64,000 nt of DNA from Sphingomonas sp. (GTDB lineage: Bacteria > Pseudomonadota > Alphaproteobacteria > Sphingomonadales > Sphingomonadaceae): NCBI GenBank assembly GCA_965219075.1, contig CBDCMM010000002.1, positions 643,893-707,892 on the forward strand, in the 5' to 3' direction. The notes beneath the pieces were generated by a model. The model did not search any database and was not told where the DNA came from. It saw nothing but the letters and a program-made list of their open reading frames with translations. Shown here one piece after another: positions 4,818-34,559 of the stretch. The position numbers and the translations under genes are program-made. Numbering within the stretch: the stretch's first letter is position 1; the number at the start of each line of letters is the position of its first letter.

Positions 4818-4818
4818 T

Positions 4819-4836: not shown

Positions 4837-4840
4837 CGGT

Positions 4841-6163
4841 TTATAATCCTTCGTCCGCCAGCACCTGATCGATCCGCGCGACGGCTCTTGCGAACCGCGG
4901 GTCATCGATCCCGCCATAATGCTTGACGAAACCGGCGTTCGTCATGCCGTCTGCTTGCGTCGTCAGCACGCGCGGCAGGATGCGGTCTTCGGTCGCGCCC
5001 GATAACCGCCGCGCCTCATTCGCGGGATCTGCGCCGCCCGCCGCCGCCTTCGCAATTCTCGACCCCGAACGGTCCGCCGAGAGGTCTACGAACGAAAATC
5101 CTGTCGGATCACCCGGCTGAAAACTGGATTGCTTCGACAGGCTGTCGGCCAGTTCCTTCCATTCGCCCATCGACTCACTCAGATGCATGCCGACACCGAC
5201 CGCAAGCGCGGCGGACAGCGACCAGTGTTTGGGCCAGTCCGCGCGCCCGTGCAGCGTGATCGGCATCACCGGGACCGGGCACGCGGCAACCTGCGCCGCC
5301 GTAACATCGGCAAGATCGCCGACCTGCGGATCGACGACGAACATCGCGAGCGCGATGAACGCCGCGCGGTTGCTTTCCACCGTCGCATTCTCAGCCATGT
5401 TCGCCGGAAACGCTCGCCGCACCTGCACGGCGAGGCTCGGTTCCGGGTCGAGGGTCTGCGCGCGCGCCAATCGGCAATAGGCCCGGATCACGGCCGCCCG
5501 GTCACTTTCTTTCGTCGATCCGGCGATCTGTTCGACGGCGTCGCGTGTTTTCGGCAGATCGACCGTCGCCGCAAAAGTATCGCGACCGACCCGGGTTTCA
5601 CGCACCAGCCGGTCCAGCGGCGGCAGATCGGCCCCGCGCCACCGCAGCACGACGCGCGCCAATTCGAACAGTTTGCGGGTGAGAACCGGCGGCACGCGCA
5701 CCTTGCCGATCGCCAATTCCGTTCGCGGGAAACCCTTGCCGCCGCCCGAAGTCCTGACCGTCAGGTTCAGCCAGCGGTTTAGCGGCAGTTTACGGCTGTA
5801 CGTCATGGTCAGCACGCCGCCGCGCACCGCGACGTCGACGCGGTCGGGCCGGAACCCCCGCGTCGCAAGGACGCTCAACCCGTCAAGCTGTTCGGGACCG
5901 AAGCGGACAGGCGTCGGCACCGCTGCGGACGGAACGGGTGCGAGTTGCGTCACCGCATCGCGCCCTGCGCCCACTTCTTCGGCGGTCGGCGCGACCCGCG
6001 ATCGCGCGGTGGATGATCCGCTCGTCAACAGCACGAACGAAAGCATGACCGCGATCAGCACCGCGACCGCAGCGATCAGGATCCCGTTCCGGCGGGTCAG
6101 GGATATTTTGGGTTGAGCCCGCGTCTGCGCGGAACGGTTCGGCTGCGGGGTTTCCAGCGGCAT
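4841..6163 (-). CDS. Uncharacterised protein with a single N-terminal membrane anchor
   Basis: 440 aa from ATG 6163 (MPLETPQ); one TM helix (ILIAAVAVLIAVMLSFVLL); C-terminal 'DWPKHWSLSAAL...GEWKELADS...GFSFVDLSADRSG' block. Confidence 0.75.
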   Translation of the reverse strand: MPLETPQPNRSAQTRAQPKISLTRRNGILIAAVAVLIAVMLSFVLLTSGSSTARSRVAPTAEEVGAGRDAVTQLAPVPSAAVPTPVRFGPEQLDGLSVLATRGFRPDRVDVAVRGGVLTMTYSRKLPLNRWLNLTVRTSGGGKGFPRTELAIGKVRVPPVLTRKLFELARVVLRWRGADLPPLDRLVRETRVGRDTFAATVDLPKTRDAVEQIAGSTKESDRAAVIRAYCRLARAQTLDPEPSLAVQVRRAFPANMAENATVESNRAAFIALAMFVVDPQVGDLADVTAAQVAACPVPVMPITLHGRADWPKHWSLSAALAVGVGMHLSESMGEWKELADSLSKQSSFQPGDPTGFSFVDLSADRSGSRIAKAAAGGADPANEARRLSGATEDRILPRVLTTQADGMTNAGFVKHYGGIDDPRFARAVARIDQVLADEGL

Positions 6164-6217
6164 CCCCCCGCCATGCCGCACCGCAGTATATTTGGAAAGC
6201 CGGATGTAACGGTCCGG
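5988..6217 (+). repeat. Direct repeat copy 1 (230 bp)
   Basis: Aligns by eye to 34124-34352 with 6 substitutions and a 1-nt indel in a C-run. Confidence 0.97.
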
Positions 6218-6282
6218 GCCCGTGGGAGGGACGCTTGATCTCGCAGTCCCGTGCTCACCTTTCCCACAGCCGATGGTTAATA

Positions 6283-6315
6283 CGAAACAGTTATAATATT
6301 GCCGTGTTCCGAACA
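6283..6315. promoter_or_regulatory. AT-rich site resembling a serine-resolvase res site I, or the TA promoter/operator
   Basis: CGAAACAG-TTATAA-TATTGCCG followed by the palindrome TGTTC-C-GAACA, just upstream of the antitoxin remnant. Confidence 0.35.
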
Positions 6316-6351
6316 TGGGTGATTCATTGTCAGTATCAATGAAGATCTTTC

Positions 6352-6624
6352 ATGACAAAAGCTGCCGTTTCACAATGAAACTGAAACCCGATTTGCGCGC
6401 CGAATTCATGGCGGCGGCCGAGGCCAGCCACGGTCCCGCGTCGCAAATGGTGCGTGAATTGAAGCGGAAGTTCGTCCTGCGCCAACGGGACCGGCGCGAT
6501 CATGATGCTTTTCTGCACGCCAAGGTCGCTGCGGCACGGGCAAGAGGAAGGGGAAGGGCGTCCCAATGCGATAGTGGAAGCCGAATTCGCCGCCCGCCGC
6601 ATTCGGGTCAATGACAAGGCGTGA
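6352..6624 (+). pseudogene. Antitoxin (RHH/CopG-like 'stability system' family), frameshifted
   Basis: MTKAAV / FTMKLKPDLRAEFMAAAEASHGPASQMVREL...FLHAKVAAARA / GEGRPNAIVEAEFAARR...; two frame changes (~6369, ~6545). Confidence 0.75.
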
Positions 6625-6835
6625 AGGTCGTACGGACGCCGGAAGCGGAGCAGGACCGCACGGCGTCGGGATTACCTCGAAGCCCTTAATCCCGAAGCCG
6701 CACTTCGCATCGACCGGCTGTTCCGCGATGCCGCCGCGAGCTTGGCCGACTTCCCCCTCCTCGGACAGGAAGGTGAGGTGCCCGGTACGCGCGAATTTAC
6801 GCCGCCCCGGAGCTATCAGCTCGTCTGTGACGTTC
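6621..6835 (+). pseudogene. RelE/ParE-family toxin, frameshifted and truncated
   Basis: GTGA overlap with the antitoxin stop; MKVVRTPEAEQDR / DYLEALNPEAALRIDRLFRDAAASLADFPLLGQEGEVPGTRE...SYQLV, after which similarity is lost. Confidence 0.75.
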
Positions 6836-7013
6836 CCAGGCCCGCTGATATAACCAGGCCGCCGAGGCAATTGCAGCGGCTAGTATCACTCCCACAAATG
6901 CACCCATGCCAAACCTCCCTACATCCGATAAAAGACATTATCATATGTTTGAAATGATGCTAATCTGTTAGAGAACAGCGTTGTGCAATACGGCAATCAT
7001 GATATGTCTGGCC

Positions 7014-8960
7014 TTACACGGCATTGGCCATCATCGTCGCGTTACGGTGTCCGCCGCCCTCAACATAGACGTAATCGACGATGTCCGAGACCGGGACGTA
7101 TTCTGGCACCAACTCCAACAACAGCTCGCGTGCGCTCGCAACGTCACCATGTGCGATCAGCGCTGCCATCTTTTCTAGCTTTGGCTCCAGCTGGTCGAGC
7201 GGCAGATACGGTTCGCTGGCCGTCATGATGCGTGGATGTGCCGTCGGACCGGGATTGTTGCCTATCAACAGCTCTTCGAACATCTTTTCGCCGGGACGCA
7301 TCCCGACCATGACTACCTCGATGTCACCATCAGGATTCGCCTCGTTCTGAATCGACAAGCCCGACAACTCGACCAAGTTGCAGGCAAGGTCATAGATGCG
7401 CACCGGCTCACCCATGTCGAGGACGAAAACCTCGCCACCGCGCGCCATTAAACCGGCCTGCAAGACAAGATGCGCTGCTTCCGGAATTGTCATGAAATAC
7501 CGTGTGACGTCCTGATGCGTAAGCGTGATCGGACCGCCGCGCGCGATCTGATCGCGGAACAATGGCACCACTGATCCGCTCGAGCCTAGCACATTGCCGA
7601 ACCTGACCATGGAGAAGCGTGTCCGGTGATCTTTGGACGATGCCAATCCTTGCAGCACCATTTCACCCAAACGTTTGGAGGCTCCCATGATGTTCGTCGG
7701 CCGTACCGCTTTGTCCGTGCTGACAAGAACGAACCGCTCCACACCGCCACGCAATGCCTCCTGTGCTACAGTAAGCGTTCCAATAACGTTGTTGCGAAGA
7801 CCTTCGAGTGAATTGTGCTCGACCAAGGGAACATGTTTATAGGCAGCAGCATGAAAAACCATGGCGGGCTGCCATGTTTCCATGATCGACCGCATCCGCC
7901 GCCGATCGAGAATGGACGCGAGCAGCGGGACCGCAATCCCGCCTGCTCCGCTATTCAAAGCGTGGTTGATTGAATAAAGGGCGTATTCGCTCGATTCTAC
8001 CAGCAGCAGCTTGGTGGGTTTCATCCCGTAGAGCTGGCGGCATAGTTCGCTGCCGATCGACCCACCCGCTCCGGTAACCATTACCACCCGGTCGCGAACA
8101 CTCTCCTCCAGCGTATTACGGTCATAAGCCACGGGTTCGCGACCCAGAAGGTCATCGATCGTGAGATCCCTAAGATCGCTGGCCTGGACTGTTCCATGCG
8201 CAAGATCCATGAGACCAGGAAGCGTTCGAACGCTCGCTTCATGGCTCTTGAGTGCTGCAATAATAGTGTTGCGACGTGCGCGTGACGCCGATGGCAAAGC
8301 GAGCAGGACATCGGTGATCTGATGCTTATCGATGTGCGACGCGAGCTCCGCCGGATCGAATACCATGAAACCGCGAACTCTGCTTTTGTGTAGCGATCGG
8401 TCATCGTCGAGGAAGCCTACGACTTTAAGCTCCCGACTATCCGCCATTGCGCTCGCCAGCTGCTGCCCGGATGAGCCAGCGCCATAAATGAAAGCGCGGC
8501 CGGTTGCTTTCTCGCGCCGCAAGCGCCGGTAACGTCCGCTCAGCACGAAAGACGCCCCAACGCGGGTCGCGGTTGCGGTTAAGAAAAGTAGCGCCGGCTG
8601 GATTAGACCGATCGTACGAGGAATGCCGTTGATCCCGTAGGCGCTGATCAGCGTCGCGAAAGCGAGCCCATAGAGGCCGCACGCTGTCGCGCTGCGCCCT
8701 AACGTATCCGCCCCGGCGTGGCGCAAAACGATGCGGTACATGCCGGTTGCAGCGAATGCCGGAACAAATAGGAAGAGCGATATCGCTGCGGCGAGCGTCG
8801 GCCGTCCATACATCGATACCCATATGCCCAACCGCAAATAATAGGCGAACCAGATCGTCAGAACGCACAGCAAGACATCGACGCTGACCACAATGAAGCG
8901 CTTCCATGCACGCGGAAGCATGAGAAGAGGGTGCCCCACCGGACGCATTCGATTCTCCAT
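7014..8960 (-). CDS. Membrane-bound UDP-GlcNAc 4,6-dehydratase (CapD/WbpM/PglF family)
   Basis: N-terminal TM helices; TGAGGSIGSEL, FHAAAYKHVPLVE, STDKAVRPTNIMGASKR, RFGNVLGSSGSV, GEKMFEEL. Confidence 0.93.
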   Translation of the reverse strand: MENRMRPVGHPLLMLPRAWKRFIVVSVDVLLCVLTIWFAYYLRLGIWVSMYGRPTLAAAISLFLFVPAFAATGMYRIVLRHAGADTLGRSATACGLYGLAFATLISAYGINGIPRTIGLIQPALLFLTATATRVGASFVLSGRYRRLRREKATGRAFIYGAGSSGQQLASAMADSRELKVVGFLDDDRSLHKSRVRGFMVFDPAELASHIDKHQITDVLLALPSASRARRNTIIAALKSHEASVRTLPGLMDLAHGTVQASDLRDLTIDDLLGREPVAYDRNTLEESVRDRVVMVTGAGGSIGSELCRQLYGMKPTKLLLVESSEYALYSINHALNSGAGGIAVPLLASILDRRRMRSIMETWQPAMVFHAAAYKHVPLVEHNSLEGLRNNVIGTLTVAQEALRGGVERFVLVSTDKAVRPTNIMGASKRLGEMVLQGLASSKDHRTRFSMVRFGNVLGSSGSVVPLFRDQIARGGPITLTHQDVTRYFMTIPEAAHLVLQAGLMARGGEVFVLDMGEPVRIYDLACNLVELSGLSIQNEANPDGDIEVVMVGMRPGEKMFEELLIGNNPGPTAHPRIMTASEPYLPLDQLEPKLEKMAALIAHGDVASARELLLELVPEYVPVSDIVDYVYVEGGGHRNATMMANAV

Positions 8961-9117
8961 AGACGATCTGCACCCGCAATGTGCAGATTGCTTCCTGCCG
9001 TCAGATCCGCGGCGTGCTGCCTATACGCGATTGATCATCGCGAACAAATGCCTTCACGCCGTTACAGTACCGCGTGGATTGAAAGCTTGATCGCCACAGT
9101 TTACCCAGCCCCCTCCA

Positions 9118-10020
9118 ATGCCCGATCGTACAATTTCGCCCACGCCAGAGCGCCCCGCTCTCGATGCTATGCTGCAGGATGGACGAAGTATGCGGGTGGC
9201 GGTAATTCTCCTCAACTGGCGCGCCGCAGACATGACGCTGACCGCCGTGGCGCGCGTGTTCGAACAAACACGGCAACCCGATCACGTCTTCGTCGTGGAG
9301 AATGGAAGTGGCGACAATTCGGAAACCCTGTTGCGCGTCGGCCTTGCCGCCTATGGTAATCGCGTCACGCTGTTCGTGAACCGCGACAATCTCGGCTTCG
9401 GCGGGGGATGCAACACTGCGTTGCGCACTGTTCTCGATGCCGATTATGCATTTTGCTGGTTGCTGAACAATGACGCGGAGCCTGCACCCTCCTGCCTAGC
9501 TCATCTCGTTGCCGCCGCCGCGCGCTTTCCGTCGACCGGTGCGGTTGGCTCGCTGCTAGACAATCCCATACAACCTGGTCACGCGCATTTCGGAAGCTAC
9601 GTTCACCCCCTGACTTTGGTGTCATACCTGCTGCACCGTCCGGACGATATCGACGCGCATCGCTACGCCTGGCTGACCGCAGCCTCGCTGCTGGTGTCGG
9701 TATCGGCGCTGCGTCGGGTGGGCATCTTCGACGAACGCTATTTCATGTACTGGGAAGACGCAGATCTGAGCATGCGACTGCGCAAAGCTGGATACCGTCT
9801 CGTTGCCGAACCACAGGCCCTCGTGACGCACACTGCGGGCACCAGTTCGCAAAGTATAACGATCCGCCGCTACCAGTGGCATCTCGCGTCGCAGCGGCTG
9901 TGGTTGCGTAAGCATCATCCGCTAGGTCGAGCGATGGGACCCGTGTTGCATGCCAAATATCTTCTGAAGGCTCTGATTGATCGCGACCTAGGGCGCTTTC
10001 GTGCGCTGCTGACTAGCTAG
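9118..10020 (+). CDS. Glycosyltransferase family 2 (rhamnosyltransferase-like)
   Basis: VILLNW, VENGS, NLGFGGGCN, LLNNDA, YFMYWEDADLS. Start may instead be 9169 or 9190. Confidence 0.88.
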   Translation: MPDRTISPTPERPALDAMLQDGRSMRVAVILLNWRAADMTLTAVARVFEQTRQPDHVFVVENGSGDNSETLLRVGLAAYGNRVTLFVNRDNLGFGGGCNTALRTVLDADYAFCWLLNNDAEPAPSCLAHLVAAAARFPSTGAVGSLLDNPIQPGHAHFGSYVHPLTLVSYLLHRPDDIDAHRYAWLTAASLLVSVSALRRVGIFDERYFMYWEDADLSMRLRKAGYRLVAEPQALVTHTAGTSSQSITIRRYQWHLASQRLWLRKHHPLGRAMGPVLHAKYLLKALIDRDLGRFRALLTS

Positions 10021-10026
10021 AGCGGA

Positions 10027-11229
10027 TTAGGCCATGCCCCCGGCTCGCCCCGGGATCGTCGCAGCGCGTAACGGCGTGACGCCGACGTTGTAGCGGCACC
10101 CAAGATGCAGCAAGATATAGATAATTAGCCACGTCTGCATCGCTGACAGTATGGCCCCTAACAGATCTGACTCAAACGTAATGAAGGACGTGCAGAACGC
10201 CATAGCCAATGATATTTTCCATCTATTCTTATAAAACAGATGGGTCTCCACAACCCTATCGAAAACTCTACACGCCCTGCCAATTAATAAGAATGCCACA
10301 AACAAGCCAGGGATGCCCGCGTAATAAAGCGGATCGGTTATTATTGAATTGCTATCGTCTAGCCTATCTGACTTCAATACTACCTGTGTATAATACTGCT
10401 TAGACGAGGTCTGTCCTAATATCTTTGCTTCTTGCGCTGCTTTTAGAAAGGGTACTTTGGAAACCAGCGGCGCCAACACGTTGACGTCCCAAGTGCCCGA
10501 ATAAGGCATAAGATGCGCTTCTCGCAACTGAGTAACAATGTTTAGTCCGTCCAGACGCTGAAATATCTCGACTTGGACATAGTCGTGCAGCGAATAATAA
10601 CTTTCCGCCCGCACGGAACTAAAATATGTAAATGAAGCGAAGACTAGAGCCAGCGCGAAAAAAACGCTAACACTATTTGCGACATATCGAACTACCTTGT
10701 CTAGCGGGAAAAATGCCATGACGGTGAGTGCGATGACGACCACTCGGCCGCGTGAATCTGAAATCCCCATGAACGGCAGCGAGGTAAGGACGCTTACAAT
10801 GATCGCCAGCCTGTCCAATCTGCGAACGGGTTTTGCGATCAGGTAGAGAATAAGAACGGGAATCAGTATCAACTCGTAGACGCGGATGATCGCAAGCACC
10901 AACAGCGGCATGGTCCCGTAGATTTCCGCCATTACTTCGGAGCCCTGCCGACGGTTCAGCAAGCCGAAGTCGAGCGAAAGAACGTCATATACGACGCTTA
11001 ATGCAAGGATCACCATCCAGAGCTGCGGACGCGGAACGAGTGACACGTCTAGCTTTGGGAGCGTACCGGGCGTGTTGCTCAGCTTGACGAACGCCCCGAT
11101 TGCGAACGCGATCACCGCAACTAGACCAACGCCTACCGGTGGATGGTAGCCGAATTCGCCTGACGCGCGAAGAATCGGCATGAGTAGAAGATAAATCGCC
11201 GCTTGAGCGAAGACGATCCAAGTAATCAT
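10027..11229 (-). CDS. Polytopic membrane protein, probable Wzy-type polymerase
   Basis: About 10 TM segments, a large loop in the C-terminal half, 'SRGRV' motif, low GC (22/60 at 10201-10260), inside the polysaccharide locus. Confidence 0.55.
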   Translation of the reverse strand: MITWIVFAQAAIYLLLMPILRASGEFGYHPPVGVGLVAVIAFAIGAFVKLSNTPGTLPKLDVSLVPRPQLWMVILALSVVYDVLSLDFGLLNRRQGSEVMAEIYGTMPLLVLAIIRVYELILIPVLILYLIAKPVRRLDRLAIIVSVLTSLPFMGISDSRGRVVVIALTVMAFFPLDKVVRYVANSVSVFFALALVFASFTYFSSVRAESYYSLHDYVQVEIFQRLDGLNIVTQLREAHLMPYSGTWDVNVLAPLVSKVPFLKAAQEAKILGQTSSKQYYTQVVLKSDRLDDSNSIITDPLYYAGIPGLFVAFLLIGRACRVFDRVVETHLFYKNRWKISLAMAFCTSFITFESDLLGAILSAMQTWLIIYILLHLGCRYNVGVTPLRAATIPGRAGGMA

Positions 11230-11311
11230 CTCGCGTAAACCTCGGGCGTTTTAACGTATCTCGGGAAGTCCACCTTAAATTCCGAGCCAAAACGCAGGGC
11301 GCGCACGCCGT

Positions 11312-12313
11312 TCAAATCTTCACGCAACTCAGATATATTTCCGCGCAATCTCGATCGTGCGTGATCGAGCGAACCGTTTCCAATGCTTCGTAAGGCACCG
11401 TTTTGCGGCTCTGACTCGCCGCAGGCACCTCACCGCGGACCTGCTCGCGGCTTTGCTGCACGATGAAGCCGCCCAATGGGGTGCCGTGCACACCAACCTC
11501 GCCGAAGCCTTCCTGCTTCGCCAGCAGGCGCAGCGAACCGGGCGTGTGGATCGACAGGTGGCGTGGCACCTCCAGCCCACGCCAAGCCGCTCCGGCCTGT
11601 CGCGCATCGCTTGAGGCTGCGTTTGGCGTGCGCAACACAAGGCGGCCGCCCGGACGGAGCACGCGCCTCGCCTCGGCGAAGAAAGCGCGCGGATCGGGCA
11701 CGTGCTCGATCGTATGGCTCGCGACCACCGCGTCGACCGAGCTAGTTGCAAACAGTCCATCGGTGAATTCGCCGCGGATCGCGTCGAATCCCAATCCGCG
11801 AGCGGATTGGACGCAGGTTTCGTCAAGTTCGCTGCCCAAGACTTCCCATCCAGCCTCGCGCATTAGCGCCAGTGATTGCCCGTTACCGAACCCGACCTCG
11901 ATCACGCGGCCATCCGCGACATAAGGCAGCCAAAATACTCGCGAGAGCGCCATTTCACGAAAATACGGTATGGCATCCAACACACGCGCCAGAAGCGCCG
12001 CTCGCCCCCGCTGCGCCGTAGGATATCCTAAATGGCGATGCATGATGTGTTTCAGCGCCGCACGATACAGTCCCTTTACCCCGGTTGTCGTTAAAACGGG
12101 CGGTGCATGGGTGCTGTACGTTTCGTAGAAACCGCCTAGCTGTTGCGCGGTCAGATCATGCGCCAAATATAGTGCCGCACAAGATGCGTTGATGCAGCGG
12201 TCTAGGTTCCATTGCCCGGCGACCCCATAGACGCGATCTTCGACACCGCGAAACGCCGGCGCCAAGTCACTGTTGCACACCATGCAATGATTCGGTTGAC
12301 GGTAGATCAGCAC
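11312..12313 (-). CDS. Class I SAM-dependent methyltransferase with N-terminal Cys cluster
   Basis: CMVC...CINASC; EVGFGNG; HTIEHVPDP; HLSIHT. Confidence 0.85.
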   Translation of the reverse strand: MLIYRQPNHCMVCNSDLAPAFRGVEDRVYGVAGQWNLDRCINASCAALYLAHDLTAQQLGGFYETYSTHAPPVLTTTGVKGLYRAALKHIMHRHLGYPTAQRGRAALLARVLDAIPYFREMALSRVFWLPYVADGRVIEVGFGNGQSLALMREAGWEVLGSELDETCVQSARGLGFDAIRGEFTDGLFATSSVDAVVASHTIEHVPDPRAFFAEARRVLRPGGRLVLRTPNAASSDARQAGAAWRGLEVPRHLSIHTPGSLRLLAKQEGFGEVGVHGTPLGGFIVQQSREQVRGEVPAASQSRKTVPYEALETVRSITHDRDCAEIYLSCVKI

Positions 12314-13650
12314 TTGCGCCCCCTAGCCAGCCACCATCCCGAGAGCAACACATCACCGCGCGCCAGCCCCAGCTCCTGCGCGTTGAGCCGCTCATCATGA
12401 ACCAGTGTCAGGACCAGCCTGATTGTTGCGGAAAAAGCCAAGGCGATCGGGATACCTACGATGCCTAGGAAATGACCCAGTATTATACTCCCCGTAATAG
12501 ACAGGACCGCTTCGACCATCGGGCTTAGCCACAAGGTGTGCTGGCGCCCCGCACTCATGACGAAAATCGTAAAGCACATTGTCAGTAGACGCAGAACGGT
12601 AGCAGGCAGCAGCATCAGAGAGAACAACTTCACCTCGTCGGCCAGTTGTGGCGTCAGCCATAAGGCGTAAAGGGCAACCGGCGCAGCTACGATCACCAGC
12701 GCGGTCATGAAAATATAGCCTTGGAACAACGTGTTGACGAGAAGAAAAAACCGTCGGCGCAACGGTCGGGGCCGCTCCAACGCCGCGGTCGCGTGGACCG
12801 CAATCGGCCCGGACACTGCCACCATCGCCGCGGAAACAATCCCCAGAAGACTGATAGCGATACTAAACGGCACGATTTGGGCGCGATACCCCACCGCGAC
12901 CACCATCACCGTCGCCGTGGTGGCAAGATACGCTGTCACGTTCCACCACAACACTCCGCGCAGACCGAGTAGCAGGTCGCGGATCAATCCTGTCGGTGCC
13001 GGTTCGCTCTTTGCACGGTGGGCATCTCCCCCCCTTATGCTCGATCGTAGAAGAAGCAAGATTGCGATCGACCATGAACTGACTGCATAGACCGCAAAGA
13101 TCCAAGGAAGCGGCCGACCGCTTCCCGCTATCCAGATCGCAGCCACACCAGCGAGTTGCGCTAATCCCGGCCATGATTTGGCGACATTGTCCGGACGAAA
13201 GTCGCGCTGGGCGGCTGCAGGAGCGATCGCCAACCCCACCGCCAGCAATCCCAGTGTGTACATCAGCAGCGCGTAAAGACCAAAACGCACTGTTGTCGGA
13301 TCTGAGACGATATGCCCCAGCCGGACGTACAGCTCGATGCCCACGATCGTTAGCGCGATATGTGCCGCGGTGACGATGATAACGAAGCGGCCGTATCCCG
13401 CTATTGCACGATCGGCACCATATCTAGCTACTGCCAGCGCGAGCTGCGATGCGCCAACCGAGCGCATGGATTGCGGCAGGATCAGCACCAGCGGAAGCGA
13501 GGCGAGAACGACCGAGTATATGTCAAACTGGGGACGAGTCAGTGCGCGCGCCAGAGCAGCCGGGATCAGCACTGTCGAAAAGATCAGCATTCCGCTCGAC
13601 ACGACGCTACCAATTGAGTTGCTGAGCAGGCTGCGAGGACGCGTGGACAT
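12307..13650 (-). CDS. Probable Wzx-type flippase
   Basis: About 12 TM segments; 'ALARALTRPQFDIYSVVLA' resembles the Wzx N-terminus; MATE/MOP-like length; locus context. Confidence 0.65.
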   Translation of the reverse strand: MSTRPRSLLSNSIGSVVSSGMLIFSTVLIPAALARALTRPQFDIYSVVLASLPLVLILPQSMRSVGASQLALAVARYGADRAIAGYGRFVIIVTAAHIALTIVGIELYVRLGHIVSDPTTVRFGLYALLMYTLGLLAVGLAIAPAAAQRDFRPDNVAKSWPGLAQLAGVAAIWIAGSGRPLPWIFAVYAVSSWSIAILLLLRSSIRGGDAHRAKSEPAPTGLIRDLLLGLRGVLWWNVTAYLATTATVMVVAVGYRAQIVPFSIAISLLGIVSAAMVAVSGPIAVHATAALERPRPLRRRFFLLVNTLFQGYIFMTALVIVAAPVALYALWLTPQLADEVKLFSLMLLPATVLRLLTMCFTIFVMSAGRQHTLWLSPMVEAVLSITGSIILGHFLGIVGIPIALAFSATIRLVLTLVHDERLNAQELGLARGDVLLSGWWLARGRKC

Positions 13651-13803
13651 CACGCATCTCTAGCGCGTCTCGCAACCCGCGCCAGTGGCTTGGTCGCCGA
13701 CGCACGATCATGGCGCAGTTGACTTTATGGAGACAATGGCGACTAGAAGAGGCTTGCCAATCGCGAGAATTCCGCCGTTCCCGCCTGTTCGACAAGAGGC
13801 TAC

Positions 13804-14979: not shown

Positions 14980-14999
14980 TATCAGAACAGAGAGCAGGG

Positions 15000-15617: not shown

Positions 15618-15636
15618 TAAACCGATTTTAAACTGG

Positions 15637-22005: not shown

Positions 22006-22024
22006 GTCGCTGAAGGTCCGTTCG

Positions 22025-23959: not shown

Positions 23960-24140
23960 CGTTATCAGGGTTCCTGTCAGCCCGCCGGGGTTCCTGCCTG
24001 CCGCGACCCGGAGCGCAAGCGAGGGCAGCAGAGGGACTTCCCGTAATGGTTGAGTGGTTTAGGTAGAAGATTACGCGCCCGATACCGGCCGACGTCCCCT
24101 CTGTCCAGTTTAGCCCGGCAGATGCGGAGACGCTGCCACC

Positions 24141-25166: not shown

Positions 25167-25181
25167 CGCGGGCAGCTTCGA

Positions 25182-26453
25182 TTATGCGACCGGAACGGTC
25201 GCGGGGTCCGGTGTGCGCGACCATTGCCCGCGCGTGTCGACTACCCGCTTGCCCGCAACCCGGGAGCCCAGTGCCTCGAATGCACGATGATCCACCAAAA
25301 GCGCGAGCACGCCTGCACGCGCCAGCGCGTCGTCGATCGATACTAGTTCAACACCGAGGTCGGCGAGCTTCGCGGGCAGCGCATTAATATGCGGCTCAAC
25401 GGCCAGCACGCGTCCGGGAAACCGCGTGGCGAGCGCCGTCGCAATCCGTACCGCAGGGCTCTCGCGCAAGTCATCGATGTTCGGCTTGAAGGCGAGCCCG
25501 AAGCATGCCGTTTGGAGCGATGTATCCTCATCCATCGCTTGCGCGATCTTTGCCACAACCCAGTCCGACTTGTCGTCGTTAACCTCCCGTGCAGTGCGGA
25601 TCAGACGAGCGTCATCGGGGCTTGATGCGACGATGAACCACGGATCGACCGCGATGCAATGCCCCCCAACCCCCGCACCGGGCTGGAGGATGTTGACGCG
25701 CGGGTGACGGTTGGCGAGACGGATCAATTCCCACACGTCGATACCGAGCTGGTCGCAGATCACCGACAGCTCGTTCGCGAACGCGATGTTGACGTCGCGG
25801 AAGCTGTTCTCCGACAATTTGCACATCTCCGCCGCGCGTGCATTGGTGACCACGCAATCGCCCTTGACGAAGATGCGGTAAAGGTCGGTCGCGCGAGCCG
25901 CACAAACCGGTGTGAGACCACCGATGATGCGGTCGTTGGTGATCAATTCGCGCATCACCTGCCCAGGTAGCACGCGCTCCGGACAATAAGCGATATGCAC
26001 GTCGGTCTCGCCTTCACCGGTCGTCTCCGGAAAGCGCAGGTCGGGGCGCTCCTGTGCGAACCACTGGGCAAGAAGCTCGGTGGCCCCGACAGGTGACGTG
26101 CTCTCTAAGATAACCAGATTGCCTGTGCGCAACCGCGGAGCAATTCTGCGTGCGGCCTGCTCAACATAGCGCAGGTCGGGTTGCCGCTCTTCCTTGAACG
26201 GCGTCGGCACGGCGATCACGAAGGCGTCCGCCTCTGGCGCGTCACTGGTCGCGACCAGTTTTCCCGCCGCCACAACATCATGCACGACCGCATCGAGATC
26301 GGGCTCGACGATGTGTGTACGACCGCCGTTGACCGCGTTAATCAGATGTTCGCTGACTTCGAGCCCGATGACGCGGCATCCCTGCGATGCCAGCATCGCT
26401 GCCGTTGGCAGGCCAATGTAGCCCAACCCCACCACGCAGATCGTATCGAACAT
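25182..26453 (-). CDS. wecC: UDP-N-acetyl-D-mannosamine dehydrogenase
   Basis: VVGLGYIGLPTA, ESTSPVG, AYCPERVLPG, GVGGHCIAVDPWF, FKPNIDDLRESPA; start ATG 26453. Confidence 0.93.
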   Translation of the reverse strand: MFDTICVVGLGYIGLPTAAMLASQGCRVIGLEVSEHLINAVNGGRTHIVEPDLDAVVHDVVAAGKLVATSDAPEADAFVIAVPTPFKEERQPDLRYVEQAARRIAPRLRTGNLVILESTSPVGATELLAQWFAQERPDLRFPETTGEGETDVHIAYCPERVLPGQVMRELITNDRIIGGLTPVCAARATDLYRIFVKGDCVVTNARAAEMCKLSENSFRDVNIAFANELSVICDQLGIDVWELIRLANRHPRVNILQPGAGVGGHCIAVDPWFIVASSPDDARLIRTAREVNDDKSDWVVAKIAQAMDEDTSLQTACFGLAFKPNIDDLRESPAVRIATALATRFPGRVLAVEPHINALPAKLADLGVELVSIDDALARAGVLALLVDHRAFEALGSRVAGKRVVDTRGQWSRTPDPATVPVA

Positions 26454-26466
26454 CTCGGCTTGTTCC

Positions 26467-27597
26467 TTATCGTTCGTCAGATCGCAGCATGGCCAGCGCC
26501 TCGGCGATCCTCCCGCAGGCCTGACCGTCACCATAGGGATTGTGGCTGCGGCTCCTCGCCGTATAGGCCTCATCATCGTCAAGCAACACGCCGACTTCGC
26601 GCTCGATCAGGTCGGGATCAGTCCCGACGAGCTTGACCGTTCCCGCCGCCACCGCCTCCATTCGCTCGCTAACATCGCGCATAACGAGCACCGGCTTACC
26701 CAATGATGGCGCTTCCTCCTGCACGCCGCCCGAATCCGTCAGGATCAGGTGCGATCGATTCATGAGGTAGACAAACGGCAGATAGTCGAGCGGCTCAATG
26801 AGGTGAATGTTGCCGATTCCGCCGAGAAACCGATCCACGGTTCCTCGGACATTTGGATTGAGATGCACTGGATAGACGATGTCGAGATTGGGGTAGCGCC
26901 GCGCGATAGCACTCATGGCTTGGCAAATCCGCTCAAACCCTGCGCCAAAGCTCTCACGCCGATGCCCCGTAACGAGCAGCATGCGCGCGTCGCCGCGAAG
27001 GAAGGAGAATTGCGCGTCGAGGGTGGAGCGATGCGGTGGCAACATGTCAAGCGCGAGGTATAGTGCATCGATGACGGTATTGCCCGTCACCACGATCTGT
27101 GTAGCGGGAACACCCTCATCCAGCAGATTTTCCTGTGCCGATCGCGTGGGCGCGAAATGCAGCGTAGTCGGAATAGCCGCGATCCTGCGGTTACCCTCTT
27201 CCGGCCAAGGCGCATCCATGTTGCCGCTGCGCAGGCCCGCCTCGACATGACCAACGGGAACCCGGGCAAAGAAACTTGCGATACTGGTCATCATCGTCGT
27301 GGCGGTATCGCCGTGAACCAACACGATGTCGGGCTGCCATTCGGTGAACACACGCTTCATCCCCGTGAGAACGGCGCAGGAAACATCTGTTAGATCCTGG
27401 CTAGGCTGCATTATATCGAGATCGAACGCGGGATGGATTTCGAAGAGATCAAGCACCTGATCAAGCATCTCGCGATGCTGTGCCGTTACGCAAACCCGCG
27501 CATCGAAGCGATCGTCCTTTGCCAATCGCCTGACAAGCGGCGCCATCTTGATCGCCTCCGGACGGGTGCCGAACACGCTCAACACTCGTATGGGCAT
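26467..27597 (-). CDS. wecB: UDP-N-acetylglucosamine 2-epimerase (non-hydrolysing)
   Basis: [44 protein letters not shown]. Confidence 0.95.
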
Positions 27598-27708
27598 CGT
27601 TTCTCTCGCGAATAGGCGCGGCGGACACTACGATAGCGACCGACTGGTGGAAGCCCGCGGCCTTTGCCATGGCGGACACGGCTTGTCCACGTGGCTCGAA
27701 CGGGATGA

Positions 27709-28320
27709 TCAGCTTGGGTCAGAGCCCTGCGAGCCGTTACCACGGAACACCGTCATGGTGGCCTCACCCTCAGCCGAAATGCCGTCGCGCCGCAGGACCT
27801 GACGGACGGTCAGCAGCAGGATGTGGATGTCTAGGGCGAAACTGCGCCGCTCGACATAATCGACATCAAGCGCGAACTTTTCGTCCCAGCCGATCGCGTT
27901 GCGTCCGCATACCTGCGCCCACCCCGTAAGGCCGGGACGCACGTCGTGTCGCCGCGCTTGCTGCGGAGAATAAAGCGGAACATAAGACATGAGTAACGGT
28001 CGTGGCCCGACCAGGCTCATGTCACCCATCAAGATGTTTATCAGCTCTGGCAGTTCATCAAGACTGGTTGCGCGCAGCCAGCGACCGAATGGGATGAGAC
28101 GCTGGTCATCCGGCAACAGCGTGCCGTGCGGGTCACGCGCATCCGTCATGGTGCGAAACTTAATCATCGTAAACGGCACGGCCCCACGACCGGGACGGGC
28201 CTGTTTGAAGAGAGCGGGTGCACCGATCTTCCAACGGACCAGCACAAACAAAATGAAGAGAACCGGCCATAGCAGCAACAGCGCGGCTGCAACGACCGCA
28301 AGATCGAACAAGCGCTTCAC
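27709..28320 (-). CDS. Monotopic phosphoglycosyl transferase (PglC-like)
   Basis: KRLFD, FKQARPG, KFRTM, SLDELPEL, VGPRP, RPGLTGWAQV, 203 aa. Confidence 0.92.
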   Translation of the reverse strand: MKRLFDLAVVAAALLLLWPVLFILFVLVRWKIGAPALFKQARPGRGAVPFTMIKFRTMTDARDPHGTLLPDDQRLIPFGRWLRATSLDELPELINILMGDMSLVGPRPLLMSYVPLYSPQQARRHDVRPGLTGWAQVCGRNAIGWDEKFALDVDYVERRSFALDIHILLLTVRQVLRRDGISAEGEATMTVFRGNGSQGSDPS

Positions 28321-28325
28321 CCTAG

Positions 28326-29447
<1,122 letters not shown>

Positions 29448-29455
29448 CCGCCGTC

Positions 29456-30430
29456 GTGCCGCCCGGTCCGAAAGTGCTGATTACTGGTGCCGATGGCTTC
29501 GTCGGAAGATGGCTCGTGCCGACGCTGCTCGACGCACTACCCGATGCTGATCTCGTTGGAACCAGCACGGTGCCCGGCAAGCCCATATCGGGTGCGCGCG
29601 CAATAACGCTCGATCTACTCGATCCCGCGAATATTGACGCCGTCGTCAAGTCGGAGCGACCCGAGGCCGTTATCCATCTGGCGGCGATATCCACCGTAGC
29701 AACTGCGCGTACGGACACTTTAGGTACCATGAACGTCAACCTGCTGGGGACGATGCGATTGGCGGAGGCAGTACTGCTTCATGTACCAGAAGCACGGTTC
29801 GTACATGTTAGCAGTTCCGACATCTATGGTCGCACCTTCTCCGAACGCGAGGCACCGCTCGATGAAGAGGCACCGTTCGCACCGCTCAACACCTATGCCA
29901 CCTCCAAGGCCGCGACCGATTTACTCATCGGCCAGATGAGCGCGTCGGACGGACTACGCGCGCTTCGACTGCGCCCCTTCAATCACACCGGCCCCGGGCA
30001 GGATGATCGCTTCGTCATCCCCTCCTTCGCCCAACAGATCGCGCGCATTGAGTTGGGATTGCAGCCGCCCGTAATCAGAGTCGGTAACCTGGAAAGTTAT
30101 CGCGAATTCCTCGATGTACGCGATATAGTGCGCGCCTATGCCCGTGCGATGACCGCCCCGATCGGTATTTTTAATGGCCAAGCGGTCAATCTGGCATGTG
30201 CCAAGCCGATAAAGATCCGCGAAATCCTCAAGCGCCTGATTGGATTGGCGACTACGCAGATCGACGTTGTCGTTGATCCCGATCGCTATCGGCCAGAAAC
30301 GAATCATTTTTCCGGCGGTGATGCACGGCGCGCTCATCATCTGCTGAACTGGCAGCCTGAAATCCCCCTCGATGCCACGCTCGGCGATGTTCTCGACGCG
30401 GAACGTGCGGTCTTGCATCACGCGGGCTGA
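29456..30430 (+). CDS. rmd: GDP-4-keto-6-deoxy-D-mannose reductase (GDP-D-rhamnose synthesis)
   Basis: Extended SDR (TGADGFVG, YATSK) with RPFNHTGPGQ and FVIPSFAQQIA, directly after gmd. Confidence 0.78.
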   Translation: MPPGPKVLITGADGFVGRWLVPTLLDALPDADLVGTSTVPGKPISGARAITLDLLDPANIDAVVKSERPEAVIHLAAISTVATARTDTLGTMNVNLLGTMRLAEAVLLHVPEARFVHVSSSDIYGRTFSEREAPLDEEAPFAPLNTYATSKAATDLLIGQMSASDGLRALRLRPFNHTGPGQDDRFVIPSFAQQIARIELGLQPPVIRVGNLESYREFLDVRDIVRAYARAMTAPIGIFNGQAVNLACAKPIKIREILKRLIGLATTQIDVVVDPDRYRPETNHFSGGDARRAHHLLNWQPEIPLDATLGDVLDAERAVLHHAG

Positions 30431-30477
30431 CCATATCAGACCGGCTTCTCAGGTCTGCCAGCTGTCTTTACCGAAAG

Positions 30478-31041
30478 ATGACCAACCCCATCCATCTTAT
30501 CCATCCCCGCCGCCACGGCGACGCACGCGGCTGGTTCACCGAAACCTACAATCGCGAGACGTTCGTCGCGCATGGGATTGACGTCGCGTTCGTTCAGGAC
30601 AACCACTCGCTTTCCGCGCCCGCTTTCATATTGCGCGGGCTGCCTTTTCAAACTCCACCCCGCGTGCAGGATAAGCTCGTCCGCTGCATCCGCGGACGGA
30701 TTTTCGACGTCGCGGTAGATGTGCGGAACGGATCGCCGACCTATGGCCAGTGGGTCGGTGCAGAGCTGTCGGCCGAAAACGGTGACCAGCTCTTCATCCC
30801 CGTCGGCTTTGCGCACGGGTTTTTGACGCTCGAGCCAAATTGCGAAGTCGTGTACAAATGCTCGGATACCTACGCGCCCGAGGCGGACGGCGGGATCGCG
30901 TGGGACAGCGTCGGGATCGACTGGCCGCTGCCGACGGGGAACATGCCTGAGCTGTCCGACAAGGACCGGTACCAACCCTCCCTCGCTGACTTCGGTAGCC
31001 CGTTCGCCTATGATGGGCACCCGCTCCAACCGCTCGCCTGA
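30478..31041 (+). CDS. rmlC: dTDP-4-dehydrorhamnose 3,5-epimerase; catalytic His replaced by Pro
   Basis: [31 protein letters not shown]; RGLH reads RGLP (CCT at 30643-30645). Confidence 0.9.
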
Positions 31042-31052
31042 AGGACAATCCC

Positions 31053-32104
31053 ATGCGCATCTTCGTCACCGGCGGGGCCGGGTTCATCGGCTCGGCGCTC
31101 GTGCGTCACCTCATTCGCGACACCGGGCATGAAGTCCTGAACTTCGACAAACTGACCTATGCGGGCAACTCGTCGACAGTAGCCGAGGTGGCGGGGTCGA
31201 ACCGTTACCGCTTCGTCCAGGGCGACATCTGCGATGCCGACGCGGTGCGCGCCGCGATCGTGGGGTTCCGGCCCCACATCATCACCCACCTGGCCGCGGA
31301 AAGTCACGTCGATCGCTCGATCGACGGGCCTGGCGCGTTCATCGAGACCAACGTGGTCGGCACCTACGTCATGCTCTCGGAGGCACGCGCCTATTGGCAG
31401 GGGCTGGACGAAACCGCGCGCGCTGCGTTCCGCTTCCACCATATCTCGACCGACGAGGTATACGGCTCGCTCGGCGATACCGGGCTGTTCACCGAGGAGA
31501 CGCCCTACGACCCGCGCTCGCCTTATTCGGCGTCGAAGGCGGGCAGCGACCATCTCGTCAGCGCCTGGGGGCACACCTACGGTCTGCCGATCCTCATCAC
31601 CAACTGCTCGAACAATTACGGGCCGTATCACTTTCCCGAGAAGCTGATCCCATTGGTGATCGCCAAGGCGCTCGATGGCGAACCCCTTCCCGTCTACGGC
31701 GCGGGCGATCAGGTGCGCGACTGGCTCTACGTCGAGGATCACGTGAAGGCCCTGCGTACCGTCTTCGAAAAGGTAGGCCCGGGCGCACCTACAATGTCGG
31801 CGGGCATAACGAGAAGCAGAACGTAGAAGTCGTGCGCACGCTCTGCGCAATCCTCGACCGGCTTTCTCCAAACGAGGACGGCGAGAGCGATGCCGGGCAG
31901 ATTACCTCGGTCGCCGATCGCCCGGGACACGACAAGCGCTATGCGATCGACGCGACGCGGATCGGCGAGGAACTCGGCTGGCAGCCGGAGGAGACGTTCG
32001 AGACCGGGATCGAAAAGACGGTGCGCTGGTATCTCGGCCATCAGGACTGGTGGCGCCCGCTGGCGGCGGGCAAGGCGGCCGAACGGCGCGGCGTGGCCTC
32101 ATGA
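31053..32104 (+). pseudogene. rmlB: dTDP-glucose 4,6-dehydratase, -1 frameshift near 31773
   Basis: TGGAGFIGS...HISTDEVYG...YSASK in one frame; GRTYNVGG...[12 protein letters not shown] in another. One extra base at GAA AAG G-T AGG restores [10 protein letters not shown]. Confidence 0.88.
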
Positions 32105-32140
32105 TGACGCGTATAACTGTCGACATGTCGGCGCGTTGTT

Positions 32141-33028
32141 ATGCGTGACATCCTCGTCACCGGCGCGGGCGGGCAGCTCGGCACCGAGCTGCAGCGCGTC
32201 CAGTGGCCCGAGAACGTGCGGGTCGTCGCGAGCGACCAAATCGATCTCGACCTGACCGACACCGCGGCGATCGCCGCCAAGGTGGCGGAACGCGAATGGG
32301 CCGCGGTCATCAACGGCGCGGCCTATACCGCGGTCGATAAGGCCGAGAGCGACCTTGTTACCGCTTGGGCGGTGAACGCAATGGCACCCGCGGCGTTCGG
32401 CAAAGCCGGTGCGGAAGCGGGCATCCCGCTGGTCCAGGTTTCGACCGACTATGTCTTCGGCGGTGACAAGCATGGTACGTGGGAGATCGACGATCCGGTC
32501 AACCCGCTCGGCGTCTACGGCGCATCAAAGCTGGGCGGCGAGCTCGCGGTGCGCACCTCGGGCGCGAAGGCTGTGATCGTGCGCACCGCTTGGGTCGTGT
32601 CGGCGCATGGCAACAATATCGTGAAGACGATGCTTCGGGTGGGCGCGACCAGCCCGACCTTGCGCGTCGTCGCGGACCAGCATGGCTCGCCGACCGGTGC
32701 CCCGGATCTGGCAGACGCCCTCCGCGCGATCGTGCTGCGGCTGATCGAGGATACCGACGCGCCCACCGGTACCTTCCATTTCTCGAACGCAGGGGAGACG
32801 AACTGGGCGGACTTCGCGCGTGAGATCTTCCGCCAGTCCTGCCTTCGCGATGGTGCGGTCGCGAAAGTCGAAGGGATCACCACCGCGGACTATCCCACCC
32901 CCGCACGCCGACCCACCAATTCGCTGCTGAGCCATCGCGCGATCGGCGCGGCCTATGGCATCGCCCCCCGCGCTTGGGAACCGGCGCTCGGCGACATTCT
33001 CGACGAACTGATCGGAACACCGAAATGA
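32141..33028 (+). CDS. rmlD: dTDP-4-dehydrorhamnose reductase
   Basis: [42 protein letters not shown]. Confidence 0.93.
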
Positions 33029-33894
33029 AAGGCATCATTCTCGCCGGCGGGTCGGGCACCCGGCTCCATCCGGCGACGCTCGCGGTCAACAAGCAGCTGC
33101 TCCCGGTCTACGACAAGCCAATGGTCTACTATCCGCTCAGCGTGCTGATGCTGGCGGGAATCCGCGAGGTGCTGATCATCTCCTCGTCCGAATATCTCGG
33201 CAATTACCAGCGATTGTTTGGCGATGGTTCGGCGTTCGGTTTATCGATCAGTTACGCCGAGCAGCCGCGCCCCGAGGGACTTGCACAGGCGTTCACGATC
33301 GGTGCCGACTTCATCGGCGACGATGATGTCGCGCTGGTGCTGGGCGACAACATCTTCTTCGGTGCAGGCCTGCCCGAACTGCTGGCAAGCGCGGTCGACC
33401 GGACGAACGGTGCGACGGTCTTCGCCTATCAGGTCGAGGATCCCGAACGGTATGGCGTGGTCGAGCTGGGTGATGCCGGCGTGGCGTTGAGCCTCGAAGA
33501 GAAGCCCGCGAGCCCCAAATCCAACCATGCGGTGACTGGGCTGTATTTCTACGACAATCGCGTCGTAGACATGGCGCGCAATCTGAAGCCTTCGCCACGC
33601 GGCGAGCTCGAGATCACCGACCTCAACCGTCTCTACATGGAGGCGGGCGACCTCTTCGTCGAACAGATGGGCCGCGGCTACGCCTGGCTCGACACCGGCA
33701 CCCACGACAGCCTGCTCGAGGCGAGCGAGTTCGTCAGTACGCTCCAGCACCGCCAGGGCATCCAGATCGCCTGCCTGGAGGAAATCGCCTTCGAGACGGG
33801 CTTAATCGATGCCGACCAGGCACGCGCATGTGGCGAGATGTTCAAGAAGACCGCCTACGGACGCGCCATTCTACGCGCGGTGGACGGGCGCTAG
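33025..33894 (+). CDS. rmlA: Glucose-1-phosphate thymidylyltransferase
   Basis: [42 protein letters not shown]. Confidence 0.96.
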
Positions 33895-34123
33895 ATCCTC
33901 ACCCCCACCGGCGTTTCACCGTGCTTCCTGAGCACGTCGTCGAACGCCTCGGCCATCAACGCCTGAAGGCTCCTGCCCTGCCTCCTCCCCAACATGTGCA
34001 TTGCGAGGCTCATCTCGGGCGTGAAGAAGCCCGCGATCTGCTTGCGGCCCTCGCGGCTCGCGGCTCGCAGGCTTCGTCGGCTCGGGCGCAGGGGTCGGGG
34101 TCGCCTCAGGTTCGTTGGCGGGC
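33891..34123 (-). pseudogene. 3' fragment of a plasmid-type ribbon-helix-helix (ParG/CopG-like) gene
   Basis: Removing one 7-bp unit at 34051-34068 gives PEPTKPASREGRKQIAGFFTPEMSLAMHMLGRRQGRSLQALMAEAFDDVLRKHGE, a beta-strand/helix/helix pattern; its native 5' end is missing. Confidence 0.65.
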
Positions 34124-34299
34124 GGCGCGGCCCGCGATCGCGCGGTGGATGATCCGCTCGTCAACAGCACGAACGAAAGCATGACCGCGATAAGCACCGC
34201 GACCGCAGCGATCAGGATCCCGTTCCGGCGGGTCAGGGATGTTTTGGGTTGAGCCCGCGTCTGCGCGGAAAGGTCCGGCTGCGGGGTTTCCAGCGGCAT
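33916..34299 (-). CDS. Chimeric ORF: duplicated N-terminus and TM of the 4841-6163 gene fused to RHH-derived sequence
   Basis: The first ~58 codons match the 6163 gene; then a Pro-rich linker and an out-of-frame tail. Confidence 0.45.
   Translation of the reverse strand: MPLETPQPDLSAQTRAQPKTSLTRRNGILIAAVAVLIAVMLSFVLLTSGSSTARSRAAPPANEPEATPTPAPEPTKPASREPRGPQADRGLLHARDEPRNAHVGEEAGQEPSGVDGRGVRRRAQEAR
34051..34068 (+). repeat. 7-bp tandem repeat (TCGCGGC x2 plus TCGC)
   Basis: Read directly: tcgcggc tcgcggc tcgc. Confidence 0.9.
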
Positions 34300-34352
34300 C
34301 CCCCGCCATGCCGCACCGCAGTATATTTGGAAAGCCGGATGTAACGATCCGG
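34124..34352 (+). repeat. Direct repeat copy 2 (229 bp)
   Basis: Matches 5988-6217. Confidence 0.97.
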
Positions 34353-34559
34353 CGCATGGCAGAGCCGGTCAACCGCTCCGGGCGCCGGATGGTCCCTGTG
34401 GACATTCACTCACGCGCATGCGATCCCGCTTGATATCGCCGCTACGTGTCGGCGCTTACAGTCGCTGGTCTCTGCTCGCGTTCAGCAGCAAAGGCGTCGT
34501 TGAGTGGATCGAGACAGTCCGCTTTCGGACAGACCGCCCTGATACGTGGCAGTTTCCAA

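Follow-up and report, generated by a model that had tools for sequence, protein, structure and literature searches.

A 27.9-kb insert, densely packed with surface-polysaccharide genes, was examined in a 64-kb stretch of a Sphingomonas sp. genome (assembly GCA_965219075.1, contig CBDCMM010000002.1, positions 643,893 to 707,892), which is referred to in its entirety as the window and on whose numbering all coordinates are given. The insert (6218-34110) lies between two copies of a 243-bp direct repeat that belongs to the 5' region of a chromosomal gene, here called X. We propose, with a probability of roughly 0.6, that it is the captured cargo of a small Sphingomonas glycan plasmid whose replication genes have been lost, and that the repeat is a passive insertion scar. 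The island is a plasmid-derived genomic island with a surface-glycan cluster, of a known kind, and not a new molecular system. The original prediction had seen in the same repeats an undescribed system for excising or switching the glycan, an interpretation that is not supported by the results presented below.

The island as an insertion polymorphism

The repeat, originally delimited as 5988-6217 and 34124-34352, was recounted and differs by exactly the six substitutions (left-copy coordinates 6212, 6139, 6135, 6105, 6056 and 5994) and the one 1-nt indel (6169) first reported, with a spacing of 28,136/28,135 bp between repeat starts. Gap-free extension carries the full homology to 5975-6217 and 34111-34352, with three extra mismatches in the junction zone. 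The window copies are about 96% identical, and the repeat pair overall 94-97%. As the sole long repeat of the 64-kb window, where other families comprised 42-53 nt or matches of 70-76%, it is not a chance similarity. The repeat scan found no inverted repeats at the island ends, where the target duplication is 243 bp, and no dif-like or Xer-type ends were seen in it or by eye. Insertion by a transposon or insertion sequence was rejected, there being no transposase, no terminal inverted repeats and a duplication of 243 bp.

A second strain (strain 2; loci L003 and L005, ctg273940_13x, 454 kb), represented by an independent long-read metagenome contig, likewise has both repeat copies, and its island is equal in size. 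In addition, metagenome runs X1 to X4 were examined as assembled Logan unitigs (k=31, a length exceeded by the repeat), and window-identical short-read unitigs spanned all four junctions (4599-5993 with 5964-6024; 6182-12006; 33690-34152; and 34317-34389 with 34360-35744). Misassembly, raised with the original prediction as a possible source of the second copy, is refuted by the agreement of two independent assemblies and by these unitigs; a collapsed or duplicated repeat has nothing in its favour beyond the general possibility and is hardly credible.

Empty-site contigs were drawn from the 90% cluster of X and comprised L010 (877 kb, 51x), L011 (from a different sample), L012 and L013. All four were 98-99% identical to window positions 1-6217 and 35687-44347 and lacked 6218-34110, homology to the window stopping exactly at the outer repeat edges (on the left at 6217). 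In each of them X is preceded by 43 nt corresponding to window 34353-34395, followed by a 217-aa methyltransferase gene and then PhaC. L004, from a sister species whose flanking proteins are 90-96% identical, is also island-free and has X joined to 34353-34395, with an alpha/beta-hydrolase between X and the nearby PhaC. The island is an insertion polymorphism within one species. Since the empty-site strains join X to 34353-34395, it is the right copy that carries the native upstream DNA and the left copy that carries foreign DNA; the insertion separates gene X from its native leader, and each side of it holds a copy of the 243 bp that lie between the two chromosomal breakpoints. The expectation that cluster-free relatives would join X to the sequence from 34353 onwards was borne out in L010-L013 and L004, and the arrangement that recombination between the repeats would leave, an intact X with this upstream region, matches that of the conspecific empty sites.

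Plasmid ends and glycan cargo

Both inner edges of the island, where remnants of mobile DNA were first noted from the sequence, carry remnants of plasmid genes. The toxin-antitoxin (TA) pair on the left is present as frameshifted pseudogenes, and this remnant (6373-6860) matched annotated antitoxin/RelE-ParE pairs on Novosphingobium and Sphingomonas plasmids at 69-75% (blastn). The fragment on the right derives from a ribbon-helix-helix (RHH) gene of a plasmid partition operon. It encodes the C-terminal two-thirds of the protein, carries the linker '...RSHAPANEPEATPTPAPEPTKPASREGRKQ' and lacks the ~14 N-terminal codons MTRKPSFANLRSHA. The island RHH is 92% identical at the amino acid level to the gene after parA in the repA-HTH-parA-RHH module (HTH, helix-turn-helix) of S. 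paucimobilis plasmids. Window 30484-34060, comprising rmlC-B-D-A and the RHH remnant, forms a continuous blastn alignment to plasmids CP099620.1 and NZ_CP010837.1, in which rfbCBDA is convergent to RHH-parA-HTH-repA; only this rml-RHH end of the island is colinear with plasmids. The closest RHH homologues in a large protein collection (P0125-P0129) were 84-86% identical, including the hypervariable Pro-rich linker, and all end a RepA-HTH_36-ParA-RHH block that abuts different polysaccharide clusters (L094-L099). In one instance an integrase and a TA pair come before the block, a TA module lies next to RepA in L097, and beyond repA NZ_CP010837.1 carries a resolvase as well as a ParE/Phd pair.

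With RHH on the right and TA on the left, as on the plasmids, the island ends represent the two sides of a plasmid backbone, and the absent connecting piece corresponds to the ~3-kb RepA-HTH-ParA block and the first ~14 RHH codons. No relaxase or replication gene was found in the insert or elsewhere in the window and, since RepA, HTH_36 and ParA are absent, the island is a backbone-less plasmid remnant and not a plasmid. Its plasmid origin is supported by these findings. In a search for the parent plasmid, the exact RHH-linker pattern had no match in the genome or metagenome contig collections, nor did the exact repeat core in the genome contig collection. Polysaccharide plasmids are known to alter the sphingomonad cell surface, and homologous fragments have been described on chromosomes (PMC10734547); the sphingomonad plasmid p5 consists to ~50% of polysaccharide genes, rfbCBDA among them (PMC10734547). 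A RepA(RPA)-HTH_36-ParA-RHH(PF20605) backbone followed by varied polysaccharide clusters was observed in isolates and metagenomes alike (L094-L099, L006, L008 and L009), and the RHH family as a whole numbers >1,200 proteins, 80-105 aa long, whose Pro/Ala linker is hypervariable.

The location of a glycan cluster between the repeats was confirmed by Pfam scans, which identified polysaccharide genes across the interval given in Table 1. Coding is dense throughout the insert, with a largest non-coding gap of 209 nt. The cluster encodes a small initiating sugar transferase (Bac_transf, 3.9e-59), three glycosyltransferases (GT2, GT4 and GT1) and two polytopic membrane proteins without a family match, which have 11 and 9 hydrophobic segments, respectively, the latter with a GC of 0.507. 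The Wzx and Wzy labels of these two proteins are putative and were assigned from topology and context only. The deletion in rmlB is common to both island strains and is present in short-read unitigs; judging by its reading frames, the dTDP-rhamnose branch of the island is probably dead unless a second rmlB lies elsewhere.

Comparison of the cargo of the window with that of strain 2, covering positions outside 16184-24558, showed near-identity at 7.0-11.9 and 24.6-29.5 kb and 3-6% divergence at 11.9-14.9 kb. The hexapeptide acetyltransferase gene at 14914-15344 is swapped for non-homologous DNA in strain 2, the two beta-helix genes differ by ~14%, and similarity between the strains over the rml genes is patchy. 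The cargo diversifies by homologous recombination inside the cluster and with other strains. The only match of 6218-30000 in a megablast search of PLSDB was to Ralstonia megaplasmids, over ~730 bp at 73%.

All open reading frames (ORFs) were assigned by Pfam/NCBIfam scans, and the stated lack of an integrase or transposase holds: no recombinase or transposase was found anywhere in the 64-kb window. This bears on the possibility of a site-specific integrative element, whether a genomic island, an integrative and conjugative element (ICE) or an integrative and mobilizable element (IME), that targeted an attachment (att) site located in the 5' end of X, provided a substitute for this end and later lost its integrase. 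Such an element is suggested by the direct repeats at either end and by the restored target gene, and a tyrosine recombinase or resolvase is present on some plasmids with this type of backbone. However, the coding-dense island contains no integrase or remnant of one, one of its ends cuts a partition gene at microhomology and not at a defined attP, and the 243-bp repeat is far beyond usual att cores. Moreover, X is not a conserved integration hotspot. Its adjacency to PhaC is lineage-specific (0/80 other loci; the two genes are ~240 kb apart in S. cynarae), and no element at X was seen in any other genome. We consider an integrative element very improbable.

Proposed capture and its alternatives

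The joint between X and RHH was resolved at the sequence level. The X sequence ...RSRAAPTAEE... resembles ...LRSHAPALEPE... of RHH, and the two DNA sequences are homeologous over a patch of ~25 nt that includes a perfect 7-mer, CGCGCCG. The position of the joint within this microhomology patch indicates an illegitimate plasmid-chromosome crossover and points away from homologous entry. The X'-RHH' fusion was in frame originally and was later frameshifted by a 7-nt tandem duplication (CCGCGAG/GCGAGCC), found in both strains, which may reflect selection against a membrane-tethered partition protein. Across the fusion junction (34040-34075, minus strand), a transmembrane (TM) anchor and a linker are followed by the RHH DNA-binding fold, the duplication GCGAGCC GCGAGCC breaking the frame.

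Under the proposed capture, a glycan plasmid with a RepA-HTH-ParA-RHH backbone and a TA module across from it would have become fixed in the chromosome of one sub-lineage. The plasmid would have been broken or resected in its backbone, and its two ends attached to the 5' region of X, at points separated by 243 bp, through short GC-rich microhomologies in an illegitimate recombination of an ends-in, gap-repair or template-switch type. The 243-bp interval would have been copied on both sides to give the direct repeat, with an intact X behind plasmid-derived upstream DNA and a dead X'-RHH' fusion stub as the outcome. Duplication in one step is an inference that rests on one joint. Frameshifts in TA, RHH and rmlB are common to both island strains, which are 1.35% diverged; the insert is therefore older than this divergence and is decaying.

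The alleles of the duplicated segment complicate this history. The X 5' region occurs as two haplotypes, A and B, ~6% apart (five non-synonymous, three synonymous and three leader changes). Haplotype A is found in L010, L011 and the right copy of strain 2 (98.8% identical to L010), haplotype B in the left copies of both strains, while L012, L013 and the right copy of the window are A/B mosaics. Most of the divergence between A and B falls within the duplicated 243 bp, against 0-3 differing sites in the 250 bp that follow and ~1% in the rest of X and its flanks. The differences between the copies to which the original prediction drew attention are real, but fail as a crossover map, being standing haplotypes that also occur at single-copy loci. 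A crossover at 6062-6085 in strain 2, suggested by a reciprocal switch when the distant L004 served as the outgroup, was rejected, as the signal is gone with the four conspecific single-copy alleles. In strain 2 the right copy is all A and the left all B, which fits a crossover only in the last ~50 nt, or other histories. Right-copy-specific alleles of the window (34192, 34241, 34271, 34275 and 34299) were absent from the contigs of all four public runs, and a single left-type unitig represents the cores of both copies in run X2; closely related strains therefore differ in the homogenisation of the copies. Clearly, sequence has passed between the two copies or between them and other strains. 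These data weigh against the proposed capture, since a simple duplication would begin with identical copies, whereas the A/B pattern requires that an allele was replaced afterwards, that the origin involved two steps or that the donor brought a copy of its own. Counting also against it is the parent plasmid, which was not found; any microhomology at the 6217/6218 joint is presumed. The haplotype pattern fits a donor-borne copy and later allelic replacement alike.

A two-step origin would have begun with a cointegrate formed at the microhomology between RHH and X codon ~60, disrupting X, into which an intact wild-type allele of X subsequently recombined, its source being either a different strain or a sister chromosome. 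The second event, homologous at the X body and illegitimate at the TA-upstream side, would have deleted RepA-HTH-ParA, restored X and made the second copy, of a different haplotype. Such a sequence of events is in keeping with an X|RHH joint at microhomology and with the loss of precisely the replication/partition block, it accounts for the A and B copies of strain 2 as well as the retained intact X, and the abundant mosaicism points to frequent inter-strain recombination. It nevertheless requires two rare events, no backbone-bearing cointegrate was seen, and the haplotype difference could equally have arisen by later allelic replacement. We regard a two-step origin as rather unlikely, if worth keeping in mind.

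The original prediction envisaged a plasmid-like circle that carried a piece of the chromosomal gene and integrated by single crossover. Of this proposal the plasmid-remnant edges and the duplicated piece of the target stood, while the microhomology joint and the lack of X on PLSDB plasmids speak against it: no X sequence was found among the 72,556 plasmids in that database, though absence from a database is not proof. In its developed form, a non-replicating circle with its own X 5' segment would have entered in Campbell fashion, with RecA-dependent loop-out and loop-in switching or spreading the glycan. The geometry fits, as direct repeats flank the insert, loop-out would leave an intact gene and the empty site is the predicted product. 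A donor copy would also explain why left copies are B in both strains, why strain 2 has on the right the haplotype A that the dominant empty-site strain carries, and why divergence is confined to the repeat. Furthermore, the mosaic alleles of L012 and L013 could be excision footprints, and the X2 core collapse and the partly B-like right copy of the window show exchange between copies. On the other hand, the same two illegitimate joints would be needed first, so that spread would be explained but not origin. No plasmid with X sequence is known from the search above, the circle would lack a replicon and transfer genes, the 6062-6085 crossover signal was lost with conspecific alleles, and the empty sites include no direct excisant, nor does the island show a depth deficit relative to its linked flank. 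The common pseudogenes indicate a long-resident, decaying insert. Campbell-type entry of such a circle is, in our estimation, unlikely.

Further evidence on excision comes from unitig depth and from the empty sites. No drop in read depth over the island, as would follow from excision, was observed in the metagenome runs, island unitigs having depths of 20.6 and ~105 against 18.7 and 81.6 for the TetR module linked to it, which speaks against an excess of TetR-linked empty sites. A step in depth at ~12 kb is accounted for by strains that are near-identical over 7.0-11.9 kb and diverge beyond, and loose unitig ends at 5981 and 6217 represent the other repeat copy and provide no informative joint. 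Every empty site seen (L010-L013) carries the methyltransferase module in place of TetR/glyoxalase and, given this different right-hand module, none is a direct excisant. The claim of a switching system is therefore not supported: there is no recombinase and no depth deficit, the insert is decaying, and glycan variation arises from recombination inside the cargo. A circle without RepA and ParA could not persist and would be lost after release. Rare RecA-mediated deletion between the repeats is possible, but generic to 243-bp direct repeats of 94-97% identity. It is quite improbable, in our view, that the island with its own haplotype-B copy of the X 5' end acts as a recombinase-free cassette, looped out by RecA as a 28.1-kb circle, taken up by conspecifics and re-entering at X by single crossover. 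If it did, the B block and the A/B mosaics at empty sites would be footprints of repeated entry and exit, and plasmid-derived glycan loci would spread in the population by host homologous recombination alone.

Neighbouring features, known systems and meaning

The features of the window that bear on the island are listed in Table 1. The repeat portion of X, its least conserved section, encodes an unconserved N-terminal tail and a single TM helix. The X family is confined to Sphingomonadales-like bacteria, is membrane-anchored and has invariant Cys/His/Trp-Lys-Glu positions. X has no sequence relative in Pfam, NCBIfam or the Protein Data Bank (PDB), and its confident AlphaFold (AF2) model (pLDDT 90, pTM 0.84) gave no Foldseek fold match in the PDB (best TM-score ~0.1); X may represent an undescribed fold or family. 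No recorded protein is an exact match to the X or the RmlA of the window.

Table 1 Features of the island and its surroundings (window coordinates)
Feature	Position	Strand	Description
Gene X	4841..6163	-	440 aa; N-terminal tail, one TM helix, periplasmic or soluble domain
Left repeat copy	5975..6217	-	243 bp; 53-nt leader and ~first 60 codons of X; runs into intact X; haplotype B
Non-native DNA 5' of intact X	6218..6372		No match in searched collections; presumably plasmid-derived, upstream region of the TA module
Antitoxin pseudogene	6373..6626	+	Frameshift near 6540; partner of ParE/RelE toxin; three-frame translation
ParE/RelE-family toxin pseudogene	6621..6860	+	Frameshifted, C-terminally degenerate; read-through matches Pfam ParE_toxin, E 1.7e-6
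Wzx/Wzy-type heteropolysaccharide cluster	7014..33894		Pfam scans, TM counts, GC content
Cluster, first part			PglF-like dehydratase, GT2, Wzy-like (10027-11229), methyltransferase, Wzx-like (12307-13653), DegT aminotransferase, hexapeptide acetyltransferase, beta-helix protein
Cluster, middle			GT4, heparinase-II/III-like, ADH/GFO oxidoreductase, AsnB-like amidotransferase, GT1, WecC, WecB
Cluster, last part			Initiating sugar transferase (27709-28320), Gmd, GDP-sugar reductase/epimerase, rmlC-B-D-A
Strain-variable cargo segment	11900..16200		Comparison of two island strains; unitig break at 12006
rmlB pseudogene	31053..32104	+	1-nt deletion near 31770 relative to plasmid rfbB homologues; ORFs of 257 and ~90 codons
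RHH gene, 3' part	33891..34110	-	PF20605, E 4e-21 in shifted frame; lacks ~14 N-terminal codons; fused to X codon ~60
Dead stub ORF	33916-34299	-	127 codons; starts in right repeat copy
Right repeat copy	34111..34352	-	Heads the dead stub; native upstream DNA kept; upstream flank common to island-free strains
Native X upstream sequence	34353..34395	-	Beside the stub; common to all empty-site strains
TetR and glyoxalase module	34396..35686		Outside the island, but linked to it in both strains

Three alternative modules occupy the interval from PhaC to X, namely TetR and glyoxalase genes in the window and strain 2, the 217-aa methyltransferase in the four empty-site strains (L010 8663-9903) and a 409-aa alpha/beta hydrolase in L004 (8337-9909). 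In runs X2 and X3 a joined form, 34389 to 35687, was present at 11.9x and 66x, respectively, alongside the TetR form at 18.7x and 81.6x. The host is a Sphingomonas without a close species representative, its PhaC being at most 76% identical to those of S. faeni and S. aurantiaca. GC skew, examined over 54000-64000, changes sign around 57-60 kb, near rho, mnmE and mnmG and ~25 kb from the island; the switch site is probably the chromosomal replication origin.

The island shares properties with several known systems. It most resembles in content the sphingomonad glycan plasmids, including p5, S. hengshuiensis NZ_CP010837.1 (36.9 kb), OTU29MARTA1 CP099620.1 (Sphingomonadaceae), S. paucimobilis NZ_CP065671.1 and MOB-suite rep_cluster_1131, with which it has in common the same RHH (up to 92% amino acid identity), convergent rfbCBDA, a TA module across the backbone and a strain-specific surface-polysaccharide cargo. 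Unlike these plasmids, it is chromosomal, lacks RepA-HTH-ParA, is flanked by duplicated chromosomal DNA, contains pseudogenes and, apart from rml, carries a cargo found on no catalogued plasmid. Campbell-type integrants are familiar from suicide-vector merodiploids and Hfr/F' formation; as in these, a target segment is directly duplicated around the insert, with one copy truncated and one intact, and recombination would restore the empty site, but here there is no known donor circle, one homology boundary is a microhomology joint in a plasmid gene and the alleles do not demonstrate a reciprocal crossover. With ICEs, IMEs and integrase islands it shares strain variability and flanking direct repeats beside a preserved gene; in contrast to them it has no integrase, excisionase, relaxase or oriT-type genes, ends in truncated plasmid genes and has a repeat ~5-10x longer than typical att cores.

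Illegitimate recombination guided by short homology is characteristic of homology-facilitated illegitimate recombination (HFIR) and of events of the microhomology-mediated break-induced replication (MMBIR) type. The 7-nt perfect core within a ~25-nt patch and the duplication of the interval between the joints around foreign DNA are similar, although, unlike in established cases, the mechanism is deduced here from one joint. O-antigen and capsule loci are replaced via conserved flanks, as at galF-gnd in E. coli and dexB-aliA in pneumococci. The island is comparable in its putative Wzx/Wzy-type organisation, its low-GC candidate polymerase gene and its mosaic of near-identical and 3-14% diverged or swapped segments, but differs in that no conserved glycan site is involved, presence or absence resulting from plasmid capture at a lineage-specific synteny breakpoint.

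For genome scans, the case illustrates that long direct repeats around an island are alone no evidence for an excision mechanism. It offers a well-resolved plasmid-to-chromosome glycan capture, with both breakpoint pairs, the lost replication block and conspecific empty sites in one natural population. One Sphingomonas backbone, RepA-HTH-ParA-RHH, is consistently tied to variable glycan clusters and, in a genus without classical lipopolysaccharide, glycan plasmids may shuttle cell-surface diversity.

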